Shown: positions 1 to 9,954, counted from the first letter of the stretch. The stretch is DNA of 64,000 nucleotides from an uncultured Chloroflexia bacterium (GCA_963744095.1 CAVUSH010000003.1:90821-154820); one strand, 5' to 3'. Notes: a model not told the origin generated them from the letters alone. Numbers and translations: made by a program.

Positions 1-590
1 GCGATCGGATGCGGGTAGACCCGGGCCTCCTTCGGAGCGCCGGCAACGTGGGCGCGAATCTGCATCTCCAGCTCGGCGATCGCCTTGCCGCCCGTTCCGG
101 AGACGGCCTGGTAGGTGTCGACGATCACCCGCTCGAGTCCGACCGCGTCCCGGAGCGCCATGAGGGGCGGCACGAGCTGCATCGTGGAGCAGTTCGGGTT
201 GGCGATGATCCCCTCGTGCGCCTCGAGGTCGCCGGGGTTGACCTGGCTCACGACCAGGGGAATGCCCGGCTCCATCCGCCAGGCGCTGGAGTTGTCGACG
301 ACGGTGCAGCCGCGGGCGGCCGCATGGGGCGCCAGCTCGCGGGAGGTGCCGCCGCCGGCGGAGAAGAGGGCCAGGTCGACCCCGTCGAAGGCCTCCGGCG
401 TCGCCTCCTCCACCTCCACCTGGCGCCCGCCGAACGGCAGCGTCGAGCCGGCCGAACGCACGGAGGCCAGGAAGCGGATCTCCCGGATCGGGAACTCGCG
501 CTCGAGGAGGATCCGGGCCATCATGCGTCCGACGACGCCGGTGGCGCCGACGACGGCGACGCTGAGGGGGCGGGGGGAGTGTCCGGACAT
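1..590 (-). CDS. asd: aspartate-semialdehyde dehydrogenase, N-terminal part (gene continues beyond window start)
   Basis: Minus-strand ATG at 590 gives MSGHSPRPLSVAVVGATGVVGRMMARILLERE..., the typical Asd NAD-binding N-terminus. It is absent from the ORF track because it is truncated by the window edge. A TATACT -10-like hexamer (plus AGTATA) lies near 630. Confidence 0.8.
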   Translation of the reverse strand, partial: MSGHSPRPLSVAVVGATGVVGRMMARILLEREFPIREIRFLASVRSAGSTLPFGGRQVEVEEATPEAFDGVDLALFSAGGGTSRELAPHAAARGCTVVDNSSAWRMEPGIPLVVSQVNPGDLEAHEGIIANPNCSTMQLVPPLMALRDAVGLERVIVDTYQAVSGTGGKAIAELEMQIRAHVAGAPKEARVYPHPI

Positions 591-709
591 GGCTCCGCTT
601 TCAGGGCGTGAGAGGACCAACGGGCACCGACGGAGTATAGCAGCGCCCCCGGGAAGCCCCGGGGGCGCGCTCGGTGCAGGCTGCGGCCACGCGCGGTGGC
701 CGGTCTCCC

Positions 710-3289
710 CTACCCCTTGGCGAGGTGCCGCTGCATGGCCGCCTTGCGGGAAAGGTTGACGCGGCCCTGGCGGTCGACTTCCGTGACGACGACCATCACC
801 TCGTCGCCGACCGAGACGACGTCCTCCACCGACGGGACGTGGTAGTCGGCGAGCTCGCCGATCCGGACGAGCCCTTCCTTGCCCGGGAGGATCTCCACGA
901 AGGCGCCGAAGGTCATGATCCGGGTGACGGTGCCGAGATAGAGGGCTCCGATCTCGACCTCGCGGGTGAGGCTCTCGATCCAGTGGATCGCCTTGCGGGC
1001 GTTCTCGCCCTGCACGGCCGCGATCTCCACGGTGCCGTCGTCCTCGACGTTGATCTCGGTCCCGGTCTCCTCCTGGATCTTGCGGATCATGGAGCCGCCC
1101 TTGCCGATGATGTCGCGGATCTTCTCGGGGTTGATCTTGATCTTGGTGATCCGCGGCGCGAAGTCGCTCATCGTGTCGCGGGAGGCAGGCAGGACCTCGG
1201 CCATCCTGTCGAGGATCGTCATCCGGGCGGCGTGGGCCTTGGCCAGGCCGGTCCGGATGATCGCCTCGTTGATGCCCTTGACCTTGATGTCCATCTGGAG
1301 GGCGGTGATCCCGTCGCGGGTGCCGGTCACCTTGAAGTCCATGTCGCCGAAGGCATCCTCCTTGCCGAGGATGTCGGTCAGGACGGCGAAGGTGCCATCG
1401 GCCTCGGAGATGAGGCCCATGGCGGCTCCGGCGACCGGCGCCGAGATCGGCACGCCGGCGTCCATGAGGGCAAGCGTCGAGCCGCAGGTGGAGGCCATCG
1501 ACGTGGACCCGTTCGACGTCACGCACTCCGACACCAGCCGGATGACGTACGGGAAGTCGTCCTTCGAGGGCAGGACCGGGAGGAGCGCCCGCTCGGCAAG
1601 ATGGCCGTGGCCGATCTCGCGCCGGCCGGGGCCCCGCATCATCTTGTTCTCGCCGGTGGAGTACGGCGGCATGTTGTAGTGGTGGAGGTAGCGCTTCTCC
1701 AGGGTCGGGCTGATCGTGTCGATCCGCTGGACGTCGGAGGACGGGCCGAGCGTGGCGACGGTCAGGGCCTGGGTCTCGCCGCGGGTGAAGAGGCCGGAGC
1801 CGTGGGCGCGCGGCACGAGGCCGACTTCCACGGTGATCGGGCGGATCTCGTCGACGCCCCGGCCGTCCATGCGGATCCCCTCGGCCAGGGTCAGCTTCCG
1901 GGCGGTCTTCTTGTGGACCAGGCCGAAGAGGCCCTTGCTCACGCGCGCTGCCCGGCGCGCGGCGTCGAGCTTCGCCTTGGCCTCGTCCGTGGAGGTCCGC
2001 TGGGTTCGGATCGAGTCGGCGATGCCGTCGGCGAGGGTCGCCAGACGCCCGGGGAGCTCGCCGGCGATCGCCACGAGCAGCTCGGCCGTGGCCTCCGCGT
2101 CCGGGAGGGCGCGGTGGGCCTGCTGGAGCTGGATCCCGAAGAAGCGCGAGAGCTCGCCGAGGGTGTAGCTCGGGAGGTCCGGGTAGCCGTCGCGGGTAAG
2201 GGTGAGGGTGTCGAGGTAGCGACCCTTCGCGATCCGCGTCCCGTCGCCGAGGGCGGCCTCGAGGAAGGCGATGTCGAAGCCGACCGAGTGGCCGACGATC
2301 GTGGCGTCGCCCACGAAGGCGAGCGCCTTCCTGGCTGCCTCGGCGGGGCTCGGGGCGCCCTTGACGTCCTTGTCGGTGATGCCGTGCATCTGGTTGCCGA
2401 AGATCGGGCGGCCCGGGTTGACGAAGGTCGACCAGCGGTCGGACACCTTGCCGCGCTTCACGCGGACGGCGGCGACCTCGACCAGGTCGGCCATCTCCGC
2501 GTTGGTGCCGGTGGTCTCCACGTCGACGATCACGAACTCGGCGCCGGCCTTCACCATGGCCGCGAAGTCGAGGACCGATTCGGTGCCGGGATCGAGGTAC
2601 GGCAGGCGCTTCGCCTTGCCGACCGCCTCCTGCAGCTCGAGCTGCAGGTCGATGAGCGGCTGGAGGGCGCGGTGGGCGAAGAGGATGGCGTCCGCCATCA
2701 CGTCCTCGGGGAGGATCTTCGCGCCGGCCTCGACCATCATGATCGCGTCGCGGGTGCCGGAGACGACGAGGTCGAGCTCGCTCTCCTCGAGCTGGGGGAT
2801 CGTGGGGTTGATCACGAACTCGCCCCCGACGCGACCGACGCGGATGGCCGCGATCGGGCCCTGGAACGGGATCTCGCTGATCGTGAGGGCGGCCGAGGCG
2901 GCGATGGTGCCCAGGATGTCCGGGTCGTTCTCCTGGTCGGTGGAGAGGACCGTGATGACGCACTGGACGTCGTCCTTGTACCCCTCGGGGAAGAGCGGCC
3001 GGATCGGGCGGTCCGTCAGCCGGCAGGCGAGGATGGCGGCCTCCGACGGGCGCGATTCGCGCTTGATGAATCCGCCGGGGATCTTGCCCGCGGCGTACAT
3101 CCGCTCCTCGAAGTCGATCGTGAGCGGGAAGAAGTCGAGGCCGGGGCGCGGCTCCGAGCGGTTGGCGGTGCCGAGCACCACCGTGTCGCCGTAGCGAACG
3201 GTGACGGCGCCACCGGCGAGCCGGGCCATGCGGCCGGTCTCGATGGTCAGCGTGCGACCACCGAACTCGACGGAGAGGGAATGAGACAC
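710..3289 (-). CDS. pnp: polynucleotide phosphorylase (PNPase) with an inserted DEDDh (DnaQ/epsilon-like) 3'-5' exonuclease domain
   Basis: 859 aa. It has RNase PH domain 1 with the FFRR-type loop (KRESRPSE), RNase PH domain 2, a KH domain (GKGGSMIRKIQEETG) and an S1 domain. Residues ~250-412 (nt ~2054-2542) carry Exo I VDVETTG, Exo II HSVGFDIAFL and Exo III HRALPDAEA motifs in place of the normal all-alpha linker. It sits directly upstream of rpsO. Confidence 0.9.
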   Translation of the reverse strand: MSHSLSVEFGGRTLTIETGRMARLAGGAVTVRYGDTVVLGTANRSEPRPGLDFFPLTIDFEERMYAAGKIPGGFIKRESRPSEAAILACRLTDRPIRPLFPEGYKDDVQCVITVLSTDQENDPDILGTIAASAALTISEIPFQGPIAAIRVGRVGGEFVINPTIPQLEESELDLVVSGTRDAIMMVEAGAKILPEDVMADAILFAHRALQPLIDLQLELQEAVGKAKRLPYLDPGTESVLDFAAMVKAGAEFVIVDVETTGTNAEMADLVEVAAVRVKRGKVSDRWSTFVNPGRPIFGNQMHGITDKDVKGAPSPAEAARKALAFVGDATIVGHSVGFDIAFLEAALGDGTRIAKGRYLDTLTLTRDGYPDLPSYTLGELSRFFGIQLQQAHRALPDAEATAELLVAIAGELPGRLATLADGIADSIRTQRTSTDEAKAKLDAARRAARVSKGLFGLVHKKTARKLTLAEGIRMDGRGVDEIRPITVEVGLVPRAHGSGLFTRGETQALTVATLGPSSDVQRIDTISPTLEKRYLHHYNMPPYSTGENKMMRGPGRREIGHGHLAERALLPVLPSKDDFPYVIRLVSECVTSNGSTSMASTCGSTLALMDAGVPISAPVAGAAMGLISEADGTFAVLTDILGKEDAFGDMDFKVTGTRDGITALQMDIKVKGINEAIIRTGLAKAHAARMTILDRMAEVLPASRDTMSDFAPRITKIKINPEKIRDIIGKGGSMIRKIQEETGTEINVEDDGTVEIAAVQGENARKAIHWIESLTREVEIGALYLGTVTRIMTFGAFVEILPGKEGLVRIGELADYHVPSVEDVVSVGDEVMVVVTEVDRQGRVNLSRKAAMQRHLAKG

Positions 3290-3401
3290 GAGCTACTCCT
3301 TGCTCGCGTCGGCGCGGGACCGAGGGCCGAGCGCGGTTGACGCCCGGGCCGAGATGCACGGGACCCGGGCCGTTCGGCCCCGGGTCGTCGATGCTGCGGT
3401 G

Positions 3402-3698
3402 CTAGCGGCGCAGCCCCAGGCGGGCGATGACGGCCCGGTACCGGGAGGCGTCCTTCTTCACGAGGTACGCGAGAAGGCGCCGGCGATGCCCGACGAGCTT
3501 GAGGAGGCCGCGGCGGGAGTGGTTGTCCTTGGGGAACTGCTTCAGGTGCCCCGTCAGGTCCTTGATCCGCTCCGTGAGAAGCGCGATCTGGACTTCCGGG
3601 GAGCCGGTGTCACCGGGCTTGACGGCGAACTCGCCGACGATCCGGTCCTTGGTATCCCGCACGAGCGGCACTCGGTCCTCCGACACGATTGACTTCAA
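3402..3698 (-). CDS. rpsO: 30S ribosomal protein S15
   Basis: [25 protein letters not shown]...[20 protein letters not shown] signature. The exact start is uncertain; the N-terminus is ~9 aa longer than usual. Confidence 0.9.
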
Positions 3699-3870
3699 CT
3701 TCCGTTACTTCAACCCGCCGAGAGTAGCAGGGAGGCGGAATCCGCGCAAACGTGACCGGCACAGCAGGGACGGCGGGCGGGCGTTCCGGCCCCGCGGTCG
3801 CCGGCCCCGCGCGCGACCGCGGTTGACGCCCGTCCCGCGCGCCGGCGCCGGGCACGTCTAGCATGACGGG

Positions 3871-4596
3871 ATGACGACCGAGCAGCCGGCTCGCCCGCCA
3901 CGCGTCCTGGCCTTGATTCCCGCCCACGACGAGGCGCCCCGGATCGCGGCCGTCGTCCGGGGGGTCATGGCTCACCTCCCCGCCCTCGTGGTCGACGACG
4001 GCTCGTCGGACGACACGGCCCGGGTCGCGCGCGAGGCCGGCGCCCAGGTCCTGGAGCAGCGCCCGAACGCCGGGAAGGGGGCCGCGTTGCGGGCCGGATT
4101 CCGCCATGCGCTCGAGGCCGGCTACGTCGGCGTGGTCACGCTCGACGGCGACGGCCAGCACGACGCCGGGGAGATCCCCGCGTTCCTCGCAGCATTCGCC
4201 GCCCGCGGCACCGCGGATCCACCGGACCTCGTCGTCGGCTGCCGCGACTTCTCGCGCATGCCGCCGGCCAGGCGCCTCGCGAACACGATCGGAGGCCGAA
4301 CGTTCTCGTGGGCCGTCGGCACCCACGTGCCCGACAATCAGTCCGGGTACCGCCTCGTCGGGCGCCGGCTCATGGAGGCGTCGATCGGCAGCGAGGAGCA
4401 CGGCTTCGAGTTCGAGGTCGAGATGCTGGCGGTCTGCATCGCCCGCGGCTGGCGGGTGGCCTGGGTGCCGATCCGGACGATCTACGCCGGCGGGCCGAGC
4501 CACATCCGGCCCGCTGCTCACGTGCGCCACTTCTTCCGGGCGGTTGCCGCCGCCCGGCGCACCGTGCGGAAAGCGCATCGGGCGCCGCGTTCCTGA
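3871..4596 (+). CDS. family 2 glycosyltransferase (polyprenyl-phosphate sugar transferase-like)
   Basis: LIPAHDEAPRI...VVDDGSSDDTA...DGDGQHD motifs typical of GT2/DPM1-like enzymes. TAGCAT lies 6 nt before the ATG, so the transcript is possibly leaderless. Confidence 0.8.
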   Translation: MTTEQPARPPRVLALIPAHDEAPRIAAVVRGVMAHLPALVVDDGSSDDTARVAREAGAQVLEQRPNAGKGAALRAGFRHALEAGYVGVVTLDGDGQHDAGEIPAFLAAFAARGTADPPDLVVGCRDFSRMPPARRLANTIGGRTFSWAVGTHVPDNQSGYRLVGRRLMEASIGSEEHGFEFEVEMLAVCIARGWRVAWVPIRTIYAGGPSHIRPAAHVRHFFRAVAAARRTVRKAHRAPRS

Positions 4597-4609
4597 CCCC
4601 GTCGCCTGC

Positions 4610-4668
4610 CTGACGGCTCCGCTCTCGCCCCCGGCGGTTCGTGCTCGCCCCCGGCGATTCGCCGTCAG
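4610..4668. terminator. structured convergent intergenic region between GT2 and ribF: inverted repeat CTGACGGC/GCCGTCAG enclosing two 13-18 nt direct repeats (CTCGCCCCCGGCG)
   Basis: Seen directly at 4610-4617 / 4661-4668 with repeats at 4623-4635 and 4644-4656, between the convergent stop codons at 4596 and 4665. Confidence 0.35.
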
Positions 4669-5474
4669 CTGATGAAGGCAACCCGCAGCCGGTCGTGCCG
4701 GAGGGCGTCGGGATCCGCCCGAACCAGCAGCGAGCCGGGCTCATCGACCACGACCGACGCGCGGCGGGCGGGCCCAGGACGGAGGCCCGGGCTCCACGCC
4801 GCCGAGAGCGCCGCGCGGTAGGGGCCGATGGGCGGCAGGGCGACGGGGAGCGGGAACCGCAGCAGCGCCTCGCGGCCGTCGAGGCTCCGCTCCGCCACGA
4901 ACCCGGTGACCGCGACGCGGCGGCCGAGGAGCGCGCGCGCCCCGGCCAGGTCGCCGGTTGCGATCGCGCGACGAATCTCGGAGCTGCGGACCGGGTGCCC
5001 GGCCAGCTCGAACGGGGGCACGACCACCACCGCGAACCCCACCTCCAGCCCCAATCGGGCGAGCGTCTCGGGCGTGCCGCGCCGCTCGTGGCCGAAGGCG
5101 GCGTCGGGCGTCATCAGGAAGCCGGCCAGCCGGGTCCGCGCCCGGATGCTGGCGACGAACGCGTCGTAGGACGTCCGGCGCAGCGCCTCGTCGAAGTGCT
5201 CCACGACGGTGACCGCCACCCCGTCGCGCTCGAGCCGGGCCAGCCGCTCGTCCGGGTCGCAGAGAAGTGGCGGCGCGGCCCCGGCCAGGATCTCGTCCGG
5301 ATGGTGGTCGAAGGTCAGGACCGTGGGACGGGCGTGAAGGCGGAGGGCCGCCCGCCGCAGCTCGCGCAGGAGGTAGAGATGGCCGCGGTGAAGCCCGTCG
5401 AAGACCCCCACCGCGACGAGGAGCGGCCCGTCCGCGGGTCGCAGGGCCGCGATACCCGGCAGCGCGTCACGCAC
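4665..5474 (-). CDS. ribF: bifunctional riboflavin kinase / FMN adenylyltransferase
   Basis: LLVAVGVFDGLHRGHLYLL...VLTFDHHPDEIL motifs. The GTG start at 5474 overlaps the truB stop. The ORF track shows it fused in-frame to the truB frame (4665..6575), which is an artefact of missing stops. Confidence 0.8.
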   Translation of the reverse strand: MRDALPGIAALRPADGPLLVAVGVFDGLHRGHLYLLRELRRAALRLHARPTVLTFDHHPDEILAGAAPPLLCDPDERLARLERDGVAVTVVEHFDEALRRTSYDAFVASIRARTRLAGFLMTPDAAFGHERRGTPETLARLGLEVGFAVVVVPPFELAGHPVRSSEIRRAIATGDLAGARALLGRRVAVTGFVAERSLDGREALLRFPLPVALPPIGPYRAALSAAWSPGLRPGPARRASVVVDEPGSLLVRADPDALRHDRLRVAFIS

Positions 5475-6452
5475 GGAGCGCCTCGCCGTCGAAGGCCACT
5501 GCTTCCCGCTCGAGCAGCACCTTGTCCGTGACCAGGCGGCCGCCGTCCGCCACCCGGGCGATCGCGGCGAGGGAGCCGTCGGGGGCCAGGAGGCGGACCG
5601 CCCGCCGGACGTGATCCCCTCCCCCGCGGCTCCGAGGCGCTCGACGCGCCCGGTCCAGCCGCCGTGTGCCACCACCCGCAGCTCCGCGGCGGCGAGCGCC
5701 ACGGCGGGCAGGTCCTCGAGGCCGGCACCGGCGGGCAGGAGAAGGCCGACGAGCCGTTCGGCGGCCGCCGCGGCCCGGACCTCGTCCAGCGGCCGGGCGT
5801 CGGCCAGGGTGAAGGGACCGGACGCCGTGCGCCGGAGCGCCCCCAGGTAGGCGGCAGCTCCCACGGCCGCACCCAGGTCGCGGGCCAGGGCCCGGATGTA
5901 GGTGCCCGCAGAGCAGGCGACGTCCACCACGGCGATCGGGTGCTCCGGGTCGGAGTCGTCCCAGCGGACCAGGACCAGCTCGTGGAAGGTCACGGTGCGG
6001 GGCTTGAGCTCGGGCGTCTCGCCGCGGCGCGCGAGGGCGTAGGCCCGGCGCCCACCCACCTTGCGGGCCGAGAACGCGGGCGGGCGCTGCTCGTGCACTC
6101 CCTCGAACGCCGCGAGAGCGAACGCCACGGCCTCGCGGCTCGGTGGCGCCCCCTCGGCGGGCGTGATCTCCCCCTCGAGATCGTCGGTCGTGGAGCTCCC
6201 CCCGAAGACGACGGTGGCGCGGTAGGCCTTGCGCGCGCCGAGGTGGAACTCCACGACCCGCGTCCCGAGGCCCAGGTAGAGGGGCAGGACTCCCGACGCA
6301 AACGGGTCCAGCGTGCCGCCATGCCCGATCTTCCGCGTTCCGGCGAGACGTCGGACCAGCGCCACGACGTCGTGCGACGTGGGGCCGATGGGCTTGTCGA
6401 CCACGAGGATCCCGTCGACGCGGGCCTCCACGCGCGCGCTCCCCGCGGTCAT
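5467..6452 (-). CDS. truB: tRNA pseudouridine(55) synthase TruB, apparently frameshifted (-1) in a G-run near 5611-5630
   Basis: The catalytic domain ILVVDKPIGPTSHDVV...GHGGTLDPFASG is in the frame of ORF 4665..6575 from the ATG at 6452. The C-terminal PUA-like part RAVRLLAPDGSLAAIARVADGGRLVTDKVLL is in the frame of ORF 5467..6573 and ends at 5467. The two frames join at GCCGCGGGGGAGGGGATCAC. Confidence 0.7.
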
Positions 6453-7474
6453 CGCACGACGGCCCTGGCCAGGCGTTCCGCGACGGGCAGCACGGCCGCC
6501 CGGGCCTCGCCGAGCGGCAGGGGCAGCGAGGCGCCGGCCGCCCGCGGATGCCCGCCACCCCCCCACGTTGCACACAGGACCGTAGCGTCCACGCCGCCCG
6601 GCTTCGTTCGGACGGACAGGCGCGTCTCGGCGTCCTTCTCCTTCAGGAGGAGGGCGACCTCGGCGGTCTCCGACTGGGCCAGGATGTCGATGATCCCCTC
6701 GGAATGCTCCGACCGCGCGCCGGTCGCCACCAGGTCGGCGAGCTCCATCACCGAGGCGACCACGAGCCCGTCGGCATGGCGTTCGAGGCGGGCCAGCACG
6801 CGGCCGAACAGCGCGAGCTGGGCGTCCGGCTTCGTGCGGTAGAGGCGCCGGCTGATGTCGGAGAGCGGCGCCCCGGCCTCGACGAGGGCGGCCGCGACGC
6901 GCAGCGTCCGGGGCGTCGCATTCGGGTGGGCGAACGTGGCGGTATCCATCACGATGCCCGCCATCAGGGACGCGGCCAGGTCCCCCTCGCCGGCCGTGAG
7001 CGGGATCCCGAGGCGGACCGCAAGCAGGGCCACCATCTCGCAGGTGGCGGCGGCGTCCGGGTCGATCCAGGCCAGGTCGCCGGCACGGTCATTGCTGGCG
7101 TGGTGGTCGATCGTCAGGAGGGGCGCGGCGGCGAAGAGCTCGGCGTTGCGCTCGCGGATGGGGCCGGCGCGCGAGAGGTCCCCGCAGTCACAGAGGACCA
7201 CGAGGTCGTACGCCACGCCGGGCTCGGGGTCGGTGCGCACCCGGGCGATCCCCGGGAGGAACGCGTAGAGCGCGGGGGCGCCGTCGCTCACGGCGACGGT
7301 GGCGCGTCCTCCGCGAGCCTCGACCAGCAGGGCGACCGCCAGCGCCGCGCCCAGCGCGTCGGCGTCGGGGCTCTCGTGTCCGACGGCCAGGACCGAGCGC
7401 GCCACTCGCAGCCGCTCGACGACCGCATCGGGGACGGTCGCGGCGAGAACCGCGAGGTCGGACCCGGCGATCAT
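6449..7474 (-). CDS. nrnA: bifunctional oligoribonuclease / pAp phosphatase NrnA (DHH-DHHA1 family)
   Basis: 341 aa from MIAGSDLAVL, with a DHH motif (TIDHHASN) and a GGGH C-terminal motif. The upstream part of ORF 6449..8152 is out-of-frame rbfA sequence. Confidence 0.85.
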   Translation of the reverse strand: MIAGSDLAVLAATVPDAVVERLRVARSVLAVGHESPDADALGAALAVALLVEARGGRATVAVSDGAPALYAFLPGIARVRTDPEPGVAYDLVVLCDCGDLSRAGPIRERNAELFAAAPLLTIDHHASNDRAGDLAWIDPDAAATCEMVALLAVRLGIPLTAGEGDLAASLMAGIVMDTATFAHPNATPRTLRVAAALVEAGAPLSDISRRLYRTKPDAQLALFGRVLARLERHADGLVVASVMELADLVATGARSEHSEGIIDILAQSETAEVALLLKEKDAETRLSVRTKPGGVDATVLCATWGGGGHPRAAGASLPLPLGEARAAVLPVAERLARAVVR

Positions 7475-8046
7475 CGGTTTGCCCGGCGCGGCGGGGACCG
7501 ACGTCCTCGCGGCTTCGGTTGGCGGCCGCGGGCACGACCCGGCGGACGTCGCGGGTCCGTCGCCCCGACGACGGGGGTGGTCTCGCCGGTCGGGGCTGCC
7601 TCGTCGTCGCCGGCCTCCTCGTCGCCCTCGCGAGGCAGGCGGGGCACGGGGGTCGGCAGCGTCTCCGAGCGCGGCATGTCGGCCAGCGCCTCGCCGGCCG
7701 CGTCGTGGCCCCGGCCGAGCTCCTCGATGATCCGGAGGACCCGCGTTCCGCGCGCCGCCGAGTCGTCGAGGGCCACGTGGAGCGCCGGGATCCGCTTGAT
7801 CCGGAGCCGGACCCCGAGCTCGTGACGCACGAACCCCATGGCCCGTTCCAGGGCGGCAAGCGTCTCGGCCCGCTCCGGGGCGCCGCCGATCACGCTGACC
7901 CAGACCCGCGCGTGGCGCAGGTCCGGCGTCGTCTCGACGGCGGTGACGGTGGCAAAGCCGACGTGCGGGTCCTGGACGTCCTTGGCCAGGATCCTGCCGA
8001 TCTCCTGGCGGAGGAGCTCGTCGACGCGGTCGGTGCGCTGGCTCAT
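7471..8046 (-). CDS. rbfA: ribosome-binding factor A with a charged C-terminal extension
   Basis: MSQRTDRVDELLRQEIGRILAKDVQDP... is an RbfA core of ~115 aa, followed by an acidic then Arg/Pro-rich tail. It sits between infB and nrnA, as usual. Confidence 0.85.
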   Translation of the reverse strand: MSQRTDRVDELLRQEIGRILAKDVQDPHVGFATVTAVETTPDLRHARVWVSVIGGAPERAETLAALERAMGFVRHELGVRLRIKRIPALHVALDDSAARGTRVLRIIEELGRGHDAAGEALADMPRSETLPTPVPRLPREGDEEAGDDEAAPTGETTPVVGATDPRRPPGRARGRQPKPRGRRSPPRRANR

Positions 8047-8055
8047 GGCCGGGCG

Positions 8056-9954
8056 TCAGCGAGGCGCGGCGCGGCTCACCGCCTGCTGGGTGAACGCCTC
8101 GATGACGTCGCCCTCCACCAGGTCGTGGTAGCCGGCGAGCCCAATGCCGCATTCGTAGCCCTGGGCCACCTCGCGCACGTCGTCCCGGAAGCGACGGAGC
8201 GAATCGATCCGGTCGCTCGTGATGACCTTGCCGCCGCGGTAGACCCGGGCGCCGGCGTTCCGGACGATCCGGCCGTCGGTCACGAAGGAACCCGCGATGA
8301 CGGTGCTCTTCCCGACGCGGAAGATCTGGCGCACCTCGGCCCGGCCCTCGACGACTTCCACGATCTCCGGCTCGAGCATCCCGCTGAGGGCCGCCTCGAT
8401 GTCGTCGGTCAGCTTGTAGATGATGTCGTAGAGGCGGACGTCGACCTTCTCCGCTTCTGCCGTCCGGCGGGCCTGGGGGTCGATCTTCGTGCTGAACCCG
8501 ACCACGATCGCGTTCGACGCCGAGGCCAGGAGGATGTCGGTGTCCGTGATGTCGCCGGTCCCCTCGTGGAGGACGCTGATCCGGACCTCGTCGGACTGGA
8601 TCTGCCCCAGCGCGTGGGTGATGGCTCCGAGAGACCCCGAGACGTCCGCCTTCAGGATGATCCGGAGCTCCTTCGCCTGGCCTTCCTTGAACTGCTGGAA
8701 GAGGTCCTCCAGCGTCGCCTTCTGGCTGGTGCCGGCGGCCGAGCTGGCCGCGGCCCGGGTGCCCTCCACGAGCGACCGGGCGATCTTCTCGTCGGCCACG
8801 ACCCTGAGGATGTCACCGGCCTCCGGGACCTCGCCGAGGCCCAGCACGACGGACGCCGAGGACGGGCCGACCTTCAGGGTCCGCTTGCCGGCCGCGTTCG
8901 AGAGGGCGCGGACCTTGCCGTAGGTCTTGCCGACGACGACCACGTCGCCGATCCGGAGCGTGCCGGTCTGCACCACGACCGTGGCCACGGGGCCCCGGCC
9001 CTTGTCCATCTCGGCCTCGATGATCGTGCCGACCGCGGGCCGCTTGGGGTTGGCCGTGAGCTCCTGGAGGTCCGCGACGAGCAGGATCATGTCGAGGAGC
9101 TCCTCGAGTCCGATCCGCGCCTTCGCCGAGACGGGCACGAGCGGCACGTCGCCGCCGTACTCCTCCACGACCACGTTGGCCCCGGCGAGCTCGGTCTTCA
9201 CCCGGTCCTGGTCGGCATCCGGCTTGTCGATCTTGTTGAGGGCGATGACGATCGGCACCTTCGCCGCGCGCGCGTGGCTGATCGCCTCGAGCGTCTGGGG
9301 CATGACCCCGTCGTCCGCCGCGACGACGATCACCGCGATGTCGGTGACCCGTGCGCCTCGGGCCCGCATGGCGGTGAACGCCTCGTGGCCGGGGGTGTCG
9401 AGGAAGACGACCTTCTTGCCGTCCTTGGTCACCTCGGATGCGCCGATGTGCTGGGTGATCCCGCCACGCTCGCCGGCGGCCACGGTCGTGCTCCGAATGG
9501 CGTCGAGCAGGCTCGTCTTCCCGTGGTCGACGTGGCCCATGACGGTGACGATCGGGGGACGGGGCAGCAGGAGGGCGGGGTCGTCCTCACCCAGCAGGCC
9601 CGGATCCTTCGTGGCGGGCGCGACGGCCTCGGTCGTGGTCTCCGCGATCTCGGCGGCGGTCTCCTCGGCCTCGGCCACCTCGTAGCCGAGCTCCGTCGCG
9701 ACGAGCGATGCGGTGTCGCGGTCGATGAGCTGGTTGATCGTGGCGAAGATGCCACTCTTGATCAGCTCGCGGATGACGTCGGCGGGGTTCACGTCGAGGA
9801 GCTCGGCGAGCTCCTTGACCGTGATCGTCGGCGGCAGCGTGACGGCCGCGCGATCGCGCGGCTCAGCGACGGAGACCGGCGCGAAGCCGCCCTCGCGTCG
9901 CGGTGGCTTGCGGGGACCGCGTCGCCCGCGGGTCCCGCTCCTGCTCCTGGCCAT
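8056..9954 (-). CDS. infB: translation initiation factor IF-2 (short N-terminus form, ~632 aa)
   Basis: G domain [16 protein letters not shown]...DTPGH...NKIDK. The ATG at 9954 overlaps the upstream stop as TGATG. Upstream residues in ORF 8056..10602 are out-of-frame read-through. Confidence 0.9.

Follow-up and report, generated by a model that had tools for sequence, protein, structure and literature searches.

A DEDDh exonuclease domain nested within the polynucleotide phosphorylase of Candidatus Limnocylindria: a putative bifunctional 3′-5′ exonuclease

The polynucleotide phosphorylase (PNPase) gene, pnp, of an uncultured Chloroflexia bacterium encodes an 859 aa protein in which a complete DEDDh 3′-5′ exonuclease domain is nested between its pair of RNase PH domains. 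The gene is found in a 64,000 nt stretch of DNA, referred to here as the window. The initial annotation of the window had proposed this arrangement, and domain search, comparison with solved structures, structure prediction and a survey of relatives all agree with it. The same annotation regarded the architecture as undescribed, and indeed no description of a PNPase with a nested DEDDh domain was found in the full-text literature searched. The most likely reading, held with moderate confidence, is that the gene product is a single housekeeping PNPase with an ancestrally inserted, still-competent DEDDh domain, i.e. a bifunctional 3′-5′ exonuclease.

The pnp gene and its PNPase core

Features of the gene, its PNPase domains and the adjacent sequence are as follows.

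710..3289, minus strand: coding sequence of pnp (859 aa), a PNPase in which a DEDDh exonuclease domain is nested (open reading frame; TIGR03591 equivalog)
2618..3289, minus strand: RNase PH1 with RNase_PH_C, residues 1–224 (Pfam; aligns to residues 19–238 of PNPase 8zaw)
1190..1879, minus strand: RNase PH2 catalytic domain, residues 471–700 (Pfam; alignment to solved PNPases)
974..1156, minus strand: KH domain, residues 712–772 (PF00013, E-value = 1.2e-11)
743..958, minus strand: S1 domain, residues 778–849 (PF00575, E-value = 2.4e-18)
3402..3698, minus strand: rpsO, ribosomal protein S15, directly 5′ of pnp (PF00312, E-value = 3.4e-35)
3290..3401, minus strand: rpsO-pnp intergenic leader with GC-rich hairpins (RNA fold −62.9 kcal/mol)

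The NCBIfam PNPase equivalog model TIGR03591 gives 941.7 bits (cutoff 525.05), with the match in two stretches parted by the insert. Pfam shows two copies each of RNase_PH (PF01138) and RNase_PH_C (PF03725), as well as KH, S1 and RNase_T, in the 859 aa protein. Identity with solved PNPases is ~40%, and the PH1-PH2 core, loop, PH2 residues, KH, S1 and locus are those of the canonical bacterial enzymes of E. coli, C. crescentus and S. antibioticus (3cdi, 4aim, 1e3p). The FFRR-like loop of PH1 consists of F74-I75-K76-R77, and the loop residues are kept in 76–78 of 77–78 sequences. In PH2, the phosphate-binding GSTS is situated at residues 594–597 and EDAFGDMDFK at residues 644–653. D645, D651, K653, S595-T596-S597 and R556/R557 all align to solved PNPases and are kept in at least 76 of 77 relatives. 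Their equivalents in E. coli PNPase are presumably D486, D492, K494, the S437–S439 loop and R398/R399. Judged from these alignments, the PNPase catalytic residues of the Limnocylindria protein are intact.

The claim that every normal PNPase element is intact holds for PH1, PH2, KH, S1 and the FFRR-like loop but not quite for the all-alpha domain, of which only the last ~30 PF03726 positions are recognizable. Compared with canonical PNPase there is a net gain of ~150 residues, with the DEDDh domain placed in the all-alpha domain and the last helix alone matching PF03726. Reviews give PNPase as a five-domain protein.

The initial annotation had put pnp upstream of rpsO; in the direction of transcription pnp is downstream, which is the canonical rpsO-pnp order, and the order is the same in four related loci (L001, L002, L083 and L084). 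The wider context, nusA-infB-DHH/DHHA1-truB-ribF...rpsO-pnp, is found in the window and in relatives, and from this context pnp is the housekeeping orthologue. The DHH/DHHA1 gene, four genes upstream of pnp, is NrnA-like and a candidate nanoRNase. In relatives, a gene for uracil-DNA glycosylase occurs downstream of pnp, within one or two genes. The fold of the rpsO-pnp leader is not significant (z = −1.57), and an Rfam scan of window positions 1–9000, leader included, matched no family.

The nested domain, its relatives and its junctions

The inserted segment and its flanks display the following features.

2054..2542, minus strand: DnaQ-like DEDDh 3′-5′ exonuclease domain, residues 250–412 (PF00929, PolC exonuclease match, model)
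2507..2527, minus strand: Exo I VDVETTG, residues 255–261 (D256, E258)
2261..2290, minus strand: Exo II HSVGFDIAFL, residues 334–343 (D339)
2090..2116, minus strand: Exo III HRALPDAEA, residues 392–400 (H392, D397), where H-x4-D is the DEDDh signature
2543..2617, minus strand: N-terminal junction, residues 225–249, linker KAKRLPYLDPGT and then a short helix, 237–247 (AF2 secondary structure)
1880..2053, minus strand: remodelled remnant of the all-alpha domain, residues 413–470 (AF2 helices; partial PF03726)

The three DEDDh motifs named in the initial annotation are found where it had put them, VDVETTG from residue 255, HSVGFDIAF from residue 334 and HRALPDAEA from residue 392, and the profile search proposed there for residues 250–412 returns a full exonuclease match far beyond chance. 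The RNase_T profile PF00929 aligns over its entire length (positions 1–164 of 164) to residues 253–405 with an E-value = 4.9e-26 and 92.7 bits (cutoff 24), and NCBIfam DEDD exonuclease models match residues 249–408 with E-values down to 2.6e-42. As to DEDDy features, PF01612 (DNA_pol_A_exo1) gives no match on the window protein, and Exo III has the form H392-x4-D397, without Y-x3-D.

The AF2 model of the insert (pLDDT 92.6, pTM 0.88) superposes on the PolC, epsilon and DinG exonucleases in Foldseek, and the insert is thus predicted to fold as a complete DnaQ domain with the RNase H-like alpha/beta fold. The two closest relatives are PolC and DinG. The PolC exonuclease 9qpc is the best sequence match among solved chains (36% identity, E-value = 2.1e-25), and the PolC exonuclease superposes in Foldseek with an rmsd of 2.0 Å over 161 columns; the DinG exonuclease 8zef ranks first by Foldseek E-value, and epsilon gives a TMt of 0.81. 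Other near relatives are Cas2-DEDDh, exo+GIY-YIG/UVR and exo+BRCT proteins, all DNA-directed. RNase T shows a weak sequence match (2f96, E-value = 1.1e-4), not at equivalog level, and a fold match with TMt ~0.64. No Orn or REXO2 chain is present among the PDB sequence matches at E-value ≤ 0.001, the top 50 Foldseek hits or the top 25 NCBIfam models. The insert is not a PolC as such, as NF001688 gives 123.6 bits (cutoff 873), in the exonuclease region only, with no PHP or polymerase match. An exhaustive profile search for a specific donor family returned only generic DnaQ/PolC/DinG-type relatives at ~145–160 bits, the higher scorers being tandem-domain proteins.

In the full-length AF2 model the pLDDT falls below 50 over PH2 and S1, because the alignment had close homologues only; the model is unreliable there, and a PDB fold search with it simply returns PNPases.

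The insert interrupts the all-alpha linker domain, as had been suggested, and about the first two-thirds of that domain is displaced. On the window protein PF03726 matches with profile positions ~51–80 only (E-value = 0.01, 16.7 bits, under the cutoff of 24.6), and the homologue P0240 clears the cutoff with 25.6 bits. Four residues of the N-terminal junction, K225, K227, P230 and V239, do not vary across 60 species. On the C-terminal side, AF2 predicts three long helices, 394–429, 434–448 and 452–470, with pLDDT >90, the first of which is continuous with the Exo III helix. The remnant carries a net charge of +6.3 (range +4 to +8) and 10 of its positions are ≥93% K/R in 60 species. This conserved basic stripe is unlike the exonuclease domain itself, which is acidic.

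Occurrence and conservation in Candidatus Limnocylindria

Proteins of ~859 aa with 81–100% identity, all with PF00929, form >120 clusters in NCBI, ENA and JGI; one of them, P0121, is identical to the window protein and is encoded on an 868-kb contig. An exact query of a contig index with the window protein gave no match. The same architecture is present at no fewer than 80 GTDB species-representative loci, with 59–88% identity spanning both junctions; this count comes from the best 80 inspected out of 564 stretches, the scan patterns being such that generic DnaQ domains fit them as well. All credible carriers are Chloroflexota of the class Candidatus Limnocylindria, Ca. Limnocylindrus included, and all are known from uncultured MAGs. 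Full-length identity is 70% for a Ca. Limnocylindrus cluster (P0243), and a divergent branch (P0101) has an insert with 41–44% identity. The fusion gene is always at the rpsO-pnp locus.

An assembly chimera, a mis-joining of genes or an insertion of intein-like or mobile type might be suspected, as the databases contain numerous fragments under the label "exonuclease domain-containing protein, partial". Such fragments stem from long-read contigs rich in frameshifts or from gene calls that start internally. The identical in-frame junctions recur in no fewer than 80 species genomes, as in the >120 clusters, in short-read and long-read assemblies, and because these assemblies are independent the chimera, which the initial annotation had named as a formal possibility, is refuted. 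GC content is even over both junctions, and Pfam shows no Hint, intein or homing-endonuclease match in the 859 aa protein. An artefact or mobile element can for practical purposes be dismissed.

A naturally split pnp, with PH1 and the exonuclease in one gene and PH2, KH and S1 in another, was considered and rejected. L001, L002 and L084 are frameshifted long-read contigs, and at L083 the open reading frame is intact and the apparent split comes from a gene call that starts internally. The L026 gene is intact with its catalytic residues present (tblastn and motif checks).

The pentad D256/E258/D339/H392/D397 is invariant in 81 of 81 sequences, among which identity in the insert goes down to ~60%, and the P0101 branch keeps it also. 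The neighbouring motif residues T259, T260, H334, F338 and R393 are kept in nearly every sequence. Insert length is 239–242 aa in 60 species, and residues 225–470 include 57 invariant positions. With the frameshift-affected L004 comparison left out, dN/dS is 0.16–0.38 for the exonuclease domain against 0.11–0.38 for the PH domains. The pentad, fixed length, dN/dS and invariant positions suggest selection for catalysis in the insert.

This pattern bears on another reading, in which the nested domain is no longer a nuclease and acts as a structural lid or as a regulatory or nucleic-acid-binding module on the alpha domain. Pseudo-nuclease DnaQ folds are known in other proteins, a point in its favor. 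The alpha domain that was replaced is itself reported to have a regulatory role, gating active-site access for phosphate and NDP (PMC6181284). Set against five catalytic residues that never vary, even in P0101, and motif neighbours that are nearly all kept, loss of nuclease function appears very improbable.

Possible functions and known systems

Both centres have all of their key residues, the phosphorolytic site in PH2 and the two-metal hydrolytic site of the DEDDh domain. In the bifunctional reading favored here, a DEDDh domain of the PolC/epsilon/DinG type would have been inserted into the all-alpha linker in an ancestor of the Limnocylindria, with catalytic competence kept since. The PNPase trimer ring would still form and would therefore carry three hydrolytic sites. 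Their mounting would be rigid, on the ring face or rim at which the alpha domain lies, the region with the reported gating role (PMC6181284); in human PNPase the alpha-domain residue K306 contacts RNA, and the minimal product is a trinucleotide (PMC12685370). The enzyme would thus be a bifunctional 3′-5′ exonuclease. Long single-stranded RNA would reach PH2 by way of KH, S1 and the channel and be phosphorolysed there to NDPs, and the nested site would hydrolyse to NMPs those 3′ ends that PH2 handles poorly. Candidate substrates of the latter are short limit oligonucleotides, short 3′ overhangs beside structure and, under phosphate scarcity, RNA of any kind. The basic helices may serve as a guide for nucleic acid passing between the sites. 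That the insert hydrolyses RNA is something we infer, because the PolC/epsilon/DinG branch consists of DNA-directed enzymes.

Elsewhere PNPase works with separate DEDD-superfamily hydrolytic nucleases, e.g. Orn/REXO2 acting downstream of it (PMC7261184) and RNase D in the Caulobacter degradosome (PMC4245959). The nested domain may be an in-cis version of these trans partnerships, and of that between the exosome PH ring and Rrp6/Dis3. It differs from them in being part of the same protein, RNase D is DEDDy, and the insert has no specific similarity to Orn/REXO2. The eukaryotic RNA exosome also couples a PH-domain ring physically to hydrolytic 3′-5′ exonucleases, with Dis3 at the bottom of the ring. 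However, the exosome ring is catalytically dead and its nucleases are separate subunits, Rrp6 being DEDDy and Dis3/Rrp44 an RNB enzyme, whereas the presumed Limnocylindria ring keeps the residues of the phosphorolytic site and has its DEDDh nuclease in the same polypeptide. The parallel with Rrp6 that the initial annotation had drawn is apt as a functional likeness; by family the two part, Rrp6 as DEDDy and the insert as DEDDh of the PolC/epsilon/DinG branch.

A stronger form, a "one-polypeptide exosome", may be put forward tentatively as a possibility. In a trimeric ring, the live PH2 site and the rigidly mounted DEDDh site would swap an RNA 3′ end or limit oligonucleotide along the basic helical track and degrade it to mononucleotides, with the capability of doing so independently of phosphate and without RNase R, RNase II or Orn. 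If true, this could be an adaptation of streamlined oligotrophic bacteria.

It is rather doubtful, though worth serious consideration, that the nested domain is instead a 3′-5′ exonuclease for DNA or RNA-DNA hybrids, serving DNA-end processing, recombinational repair or R-loop removal and not bulk RNA decay. Its closest relatives (PolC, epsilon, DinG, Cas2-DEDDh, exo+GIY-YIG/UVR and exo+BRCT) are all DEDDh modules of DNA metabolism. The DinG exonuclease breaks down ssDNA and, in hybrids, the RNA strand; that of B. subtilis has a preference for ssDNA and requires Mn2+ to cut free ssRNA (PMC12525004). The 3′-5′ ssDNase activity of B. subtilis PNPase serves double-strand-break repair with RecN and RecA (PMC2709576, PMC3241651). 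The uracil-DNA glycosylase gene near pnp in relatives points the same way, but its position may be incidental. Further, the host is an rpsO-linked housekeeping RNA enzyme with its RNA-handling elements (KH, S1, FFRR-like loop) intact, and homology does not fix the substrate because DEDDh domains readily change between DNA and RNA, RNase T and Orn having the same fold.

A narrower version of the RNA model would make the domain a dedicated nanoRNase/oligoribonuclease that finishes the 2–5-nt limit products of PH2 in place of a free-standing Orn, and this seems unlikely. It agrees with the position of Orn and REXO2, both DEDDh enzymes, directly downstream of PNPase (PMC7261184, PMC6613908), with the oligonucleotide end products of PNPase, a trinucleotide for hPNPase (PMC12685370), and with the placement of the insert on the domain gating the active-site exit (PMC6181284). 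But similarity to Orn/REXO2 is no higher than to generic DnaQ domains, and Orn is a dimer with a closed 5′-phosphate cap, neither of which is indicated for the nested domain. The NrnA-like DHH/DHHA1 gene in the same cluster is a nanoRNase candidate, so the cell is not obviously short of an oligonucleotide-finishing enzyme.

Nesting of a DEDDh domain has a counterpart in PolC, where the proofreading domain likewise lies within another domain (PHP). There a DNA polymerase is the host, with DNA proofreading as the function, whereas here the host is a phosphorolytic RNase. The DinG helicases of S. aureus and B. subtilis carry a close fold and sequence neighbour (8zef) as an N-terminal DEDDh exonuclease, which demonstrates that the branch can cut RNA too, in hybrids or with Mn2+ (PMC12525004). 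DinG differs in that the exonuclease is a terminal fusion to an SF2 helicase, not nested, and acts in DNA replication-stress pathways.

Few RNA-decay enzymes have received as much study as PNPase, and its plan of five domains is taken to be universal; the Limnocylindria protein adds a sixth domain that is clade-wide and catalytically conserved. A PH-ring nuclease thus appears able to gain a hydrolytic partner through domain nesting, a bacterial in-cis parallel to the exosome with Rrp6/Dis3 and to PNPase with Orn/REXO2. The protein offers a natural system for the coordination of phosphorolytic and hydrolytic 3′-end decay and for the role of the PNPase alpha-domain face. It also bears on whether a dedicated DNA exonuclease can reinforce the reported role of PNPase in DNA repair.

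Database labels for these proteins vary from plain PNPase to "DNA polymerase III epsilon subunit family exonuclease" and "exonuclease domain-containing protein" (also as "partial"), and such uneven labels can lead astray those who inventory metabolic and replication genes in this lineage, which is abundant in soil and fresh water.

An exonuclease domain within the PNPase reading frame

710–3289, minus strand: pnp, an 859 aa open reading frame (identified by ORF, Pfam and NCBIfam)

The PNPase of the window displays two RNase_PH, two RNase_PH_C, a KH and an S1 domain with Pfam. Between the PH halves, residues 253–405 match the entire PF00929 profile (RNase_T/DnaQ exonuclease, positions 1–164 of 164; E-value = 4.9e-26, 92.7 bits against a cutoff of 24). 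The NCBIfam PNPase equivalog TIGR03591 is matched in two stretches with 941.7 bits (cutoff 525), and residues ~249–410 are matched by DEDD-exonuclease, DinG-exo and PolC models, the best with an E-value = 2.6e-42. The initial annotation had placed such a domain at nt 2054–2542, which are indeed residues 250–412, and its motif positions are also correct (VDVETTG at 255, HSVGFDIAF at 334 and HRALPDAEA at 392). The presence of a DEDDh exonuclease domain inside this PNPase is thus confirmed, far beyond chance. The further claim that all normal PNPase elements are intact holds for PH1 and PH2, the FFRR-like loop, KH and S1, but not for the all-alpha domain.

Residues 5–224 align with positions 19–238, and residues 417–849 with positions 281–713, of the solved PNPase chain 8zaw; thus ~190 residues stand in place of ~40, which lengthens the protein by about 150 residues net. 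The insert interrupts the all-alpha linker domain in its first part. Of the PF03726 profile, only positions ~51–80 of 81 are detectable, at residues ~451–477, and the match (E-value = 0.01) does not reach the cutoff, which one homologue does pass.

Modeled alone, the insert yields a confident DnaQ fold (pLDDT 92.6, pTM 0.88), which superposes on the PolC exonuclease with an rmsd of 2.0 Å over 161 columns (36% identity) and on Pol III epsilon with TMt 0.81. DinG exo, a Cas-associated DnaQ domain, RNase T, ExoX and ExoI also superpose. AF2 models show DnaQ-fold strands and helices over residues 252–412; the helix that starts at the Exo III motif continues to residue 429 and is followed by helices at 434–448 and 452–470. 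In the full-length model PH2 and S1 are unreliable, the input having been limited to close homologues. As the Exo III helix runs into those of the helical domain in these models, the exonuclease appears rigidly spliced into that domain, not carried on flexible linkers.

Recurrence, taxonomic range and conservation

A full-length search gave at least 120 clusters of 796–890 aa, mostly 859 aa, with 77–100% identity, one of them identical to the window protein. Every one shows PF00929 together with the PNPase domains, and the sources are NCBI, ENA and JGI assemblies with contigs up to 2 Mb. An insert-plus-junction profile was also run against one genome per GTDB species. The best 80 loci show 59–88% identity over all 243 query residues, and both junctions are therefore covered. 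Sixty of the extracted genes are complete in one frame, and in all 60 the segment 225–465 is 239–242 aa long. The GC content is even across both insert junctions. The database survey proposed in the initial annotation thus shows the fusion in independent assemblies, and recurrence of the junctions in NCBI, ENA, JGI and GTDB species genomes rules out an assembly artefact.

Short entries annotated as "exonuclease domain-containing protein, partial" on long contigs suggested split pnp genes. This reading falls, since the entries stem from frameshift-rich long-read assemblies, where the RNase J and truB neighbors are likewise broken, or from an internal-start gene call. Related loci L001, L002 and L084 are long-read metagenome contigs (ERZ250394xx/396xx) with many frameshifts that break up pnp, RNase J and truB, and fragments from contigs of this type are the NCBI "partial" entries. 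L084 is interrupted once, by a frameshift at residue ~415 on the exo/helix boundary; in locus L083 the gene call begins internally and the open reading frame itself is intact.

Credible carriers are all Chloroflexota of the class Candidatus Limnocylindria. They include Limnocylindrales MAGs from soil and groundwater and the freshwater genus Ca. Limnocylindrus, whose 864 aa protein is 70% identical over its full length and carries the plain GenBank label "polyribonucleotide nucleotidyltransferase"; pipelines label the public sequences of the fusion inconsistently. The next PNPase matches outside this family have a normal PF03726 and no PF00929. Among 1.84 billion representatives, searched exhaustively, very few 50%-identity representatives match the junction segments, and the remaining matches cover the exo core only. 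A few 2–5-kb contigs under other taxon names bear the same Limnocylindria-type pnp, probably through binning contamination or coarse taxonomy and not horizontal spread. These are loci L022, L028 and L068 and proteins P0008, P0014, P0045, P0093, P0155, P0382 and P0391, from MAGs named Verrucomicrobiia, Patescibacteria, Saccharimonadia, Acidoferrum, Polarisedimenticolia, Deferrimicrobiaceae, Solirubrobacterales and Anaerolineaceae.

The DEDDh pentad (D256, E258, D339, H392, D397) is present in 81 of 81 sequences, and the motif neighbors T259, T260, H334, F338 and R393 are kept in nearly every one. Across 60 species, 57 positions of residues 225–470 are invariant. Compared with the window protein, the exo domain averages 70% identity, the PH domains 82–84% and the linkers 58–60%. 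Pairwise dN/dS is 0.16–0.38 for the exo domain and 0.11–0.38 for the PH domains, the frameshift-affected L004 locus comparison being left out. Conservation extends to the FFRR-like loop and to the residues of PNPase catalysis and phosphate binding. Together, the invariant pentad, the retained PNPase residues and the dN/dS values indicate that both active sites are under purifying selection for catalysis.

Gene neighborhood

3290–3401, minus strand: rpsO-pnp intergenic leader, GC-rich hairpins, −62.9 kcal/mol
3402–3698, minus strand: rpsO
3871–4596, plus strand: family-2 glycosyltransferase (GT2), wedged between ribF and rpsO
4665–6575, minus strand: truB and ribF in one 636 aa open reading frame, TruB_N/TruB_C_2 and FAD synthetase domain, uninterrupted
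6449–8152, minus strand: DHH + DHHA1 (NrnA-like nanoRNase or pAp phosphatase), between infB and truB

The order in the window is nusA, infB, DHH/DHHA1, truB, ribF, the opposite-strand GT2 gene, rpsO and pnp. The initial annotation had pnp upstream of rpsO; rpsO lies on the 5′ side of pnp as transcribed, so the order is the canonical rpsO-pnp. Relatives show the same order, continuing with UDG, RNase J and ftsK, which are known from the relatives because the window ends before them (pnp stop at 710). This is the housekeeping pnp locus. The leader fold does not stand out significantly from that of shuffled sequences (z = −1.57), and no Rfam family matches the leader in a scan of window positions 1–9000; an rpsO terminator or a pnp autoregulatory hairpin would be conceivable roles.

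Uracil-DNA glycosylase, RNase J and ftsK are common downstream of pnp in L001 (7974–10391), L002 (8228–10644), L083 (6601–9056) and the related locus L084 (5245–7585); some relatives have aspartate-semialdehyde dehydrogenase there. The GT2 gene is at the same place in L002 and absent in L083 and L084. The single truB-ribF frame may be a lineage-specific fusion or a read-through of a high-GC overlap; L083 (383–2218) has TruB and FAD synthetase called as a single 611 aa gene, and in L084 and L002 the genes are separate and overlapping. The DHH/DHHA1 placement is as in actinobacteria. As its domains occupy only residues ~254–550 of the mechanical open reading frame, translation probably starts inside that frame, whose upstream part may contain rbfA. 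Its product is a candidate oligo-finishing enzyme.

Putative function of the nested domain

KH and S1 are placed at the entry face of the PNPase ring, and the alpha domain is assigned a role in gating phosphate/NDP access to the active site (PMC6181284). In human PNPase, RNA density reaches towards the opposite, "bottom" face and the minimal product is a trinucleotide (PMC12685370); a bottom-entry route for RNA is contested. On the best reading, the Limnocylindria protein would form a trimer with three phosphorolytic and three hydrolytic 3′–5′ sites. The PH2 site would process long single-stranded RNA, and hydrolysis at the DEDDh site, held next to the exit of the active site, would deal with 3′ ends poorly handled by PH2, candidate substrates being limit oligonucleotides, short overhangs and RNA under phosphate scarcity. 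Such an enzyme, with any hand-off between its sites, would reproduce in cis what PNPase-Orn/REXO2, degradosome-RNase D and PH ring-Rrp6/Dis3 achieve in trans.

The helices that lead from Exo III into PH2 (residues 413–470) are strongly basic, their net charge being +6.3 (between +4 and +8), with Lys/Arg in at least 93% of sequences across 60 species at 10 positions (R415, R428, R431, R445, R446, R449, K452, K460, K461, R464); the exo domain is acidic (−8.8). This basic stripe possibly binds nucleic acid, consistent with the Pfam name of PF03726, "RNA binding domain", and with K306 of the human alpha domain, which touches RNA (PMC12685370).

A DNA- or R-loop-directed function is a serious, if less probable, rival to the RNA reading. 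The insert falls in the PolC/epsilon/DinG branch of DEDDh exonucleases; outside PNPases it is closest to PolC, DinG-like helicases, and exo+GIY-YIG/UVR and exo+BRCT proteins. The B. subtilis DinG exo acts preferentially on ssDNA, also cleaves the RNA strand in hybrids and attacks free ssRNA only with Mn2+ (PMC12525004), and PNPase of B. subtilis has a role of its own in DNA repair (PMC2709576, PMC3241651). A nanoRNase version of the RNA reading loses weight, since the insert does not resemble Orn specifically and the locus also has an NrnA-like gene. With the catalytic pentad invariant, a non-catalytic role is improbable.

Each of the two domains is familiar on its own. What is new is that one is nested in the other, in a core enzyme of RNA decay, and that this arrangement is fixed across a bacterial class: full-text literature searches gave no description of a PNPase with a nested DEDD/DnaQ domain, as the initial annotation had supposed, and PNPase is still described as having five domains in recent papers (PMC6181284 among them). 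The architecture is real and conserved and would surprise a specialist; its functional consequence is inferred.

The top-scoring non-PNPase relatives of the insert (proteins P0246, P0252 and P0248/P0250/P0258) have DEDDh domains in tandem, two or three per protein, e.g. 3x RNase_T + GIY-YIG + UVR (1045 aa), a 1631 aa PolC whose PHP domain holds two exo domains, and 2x RNase_T + BRCT.
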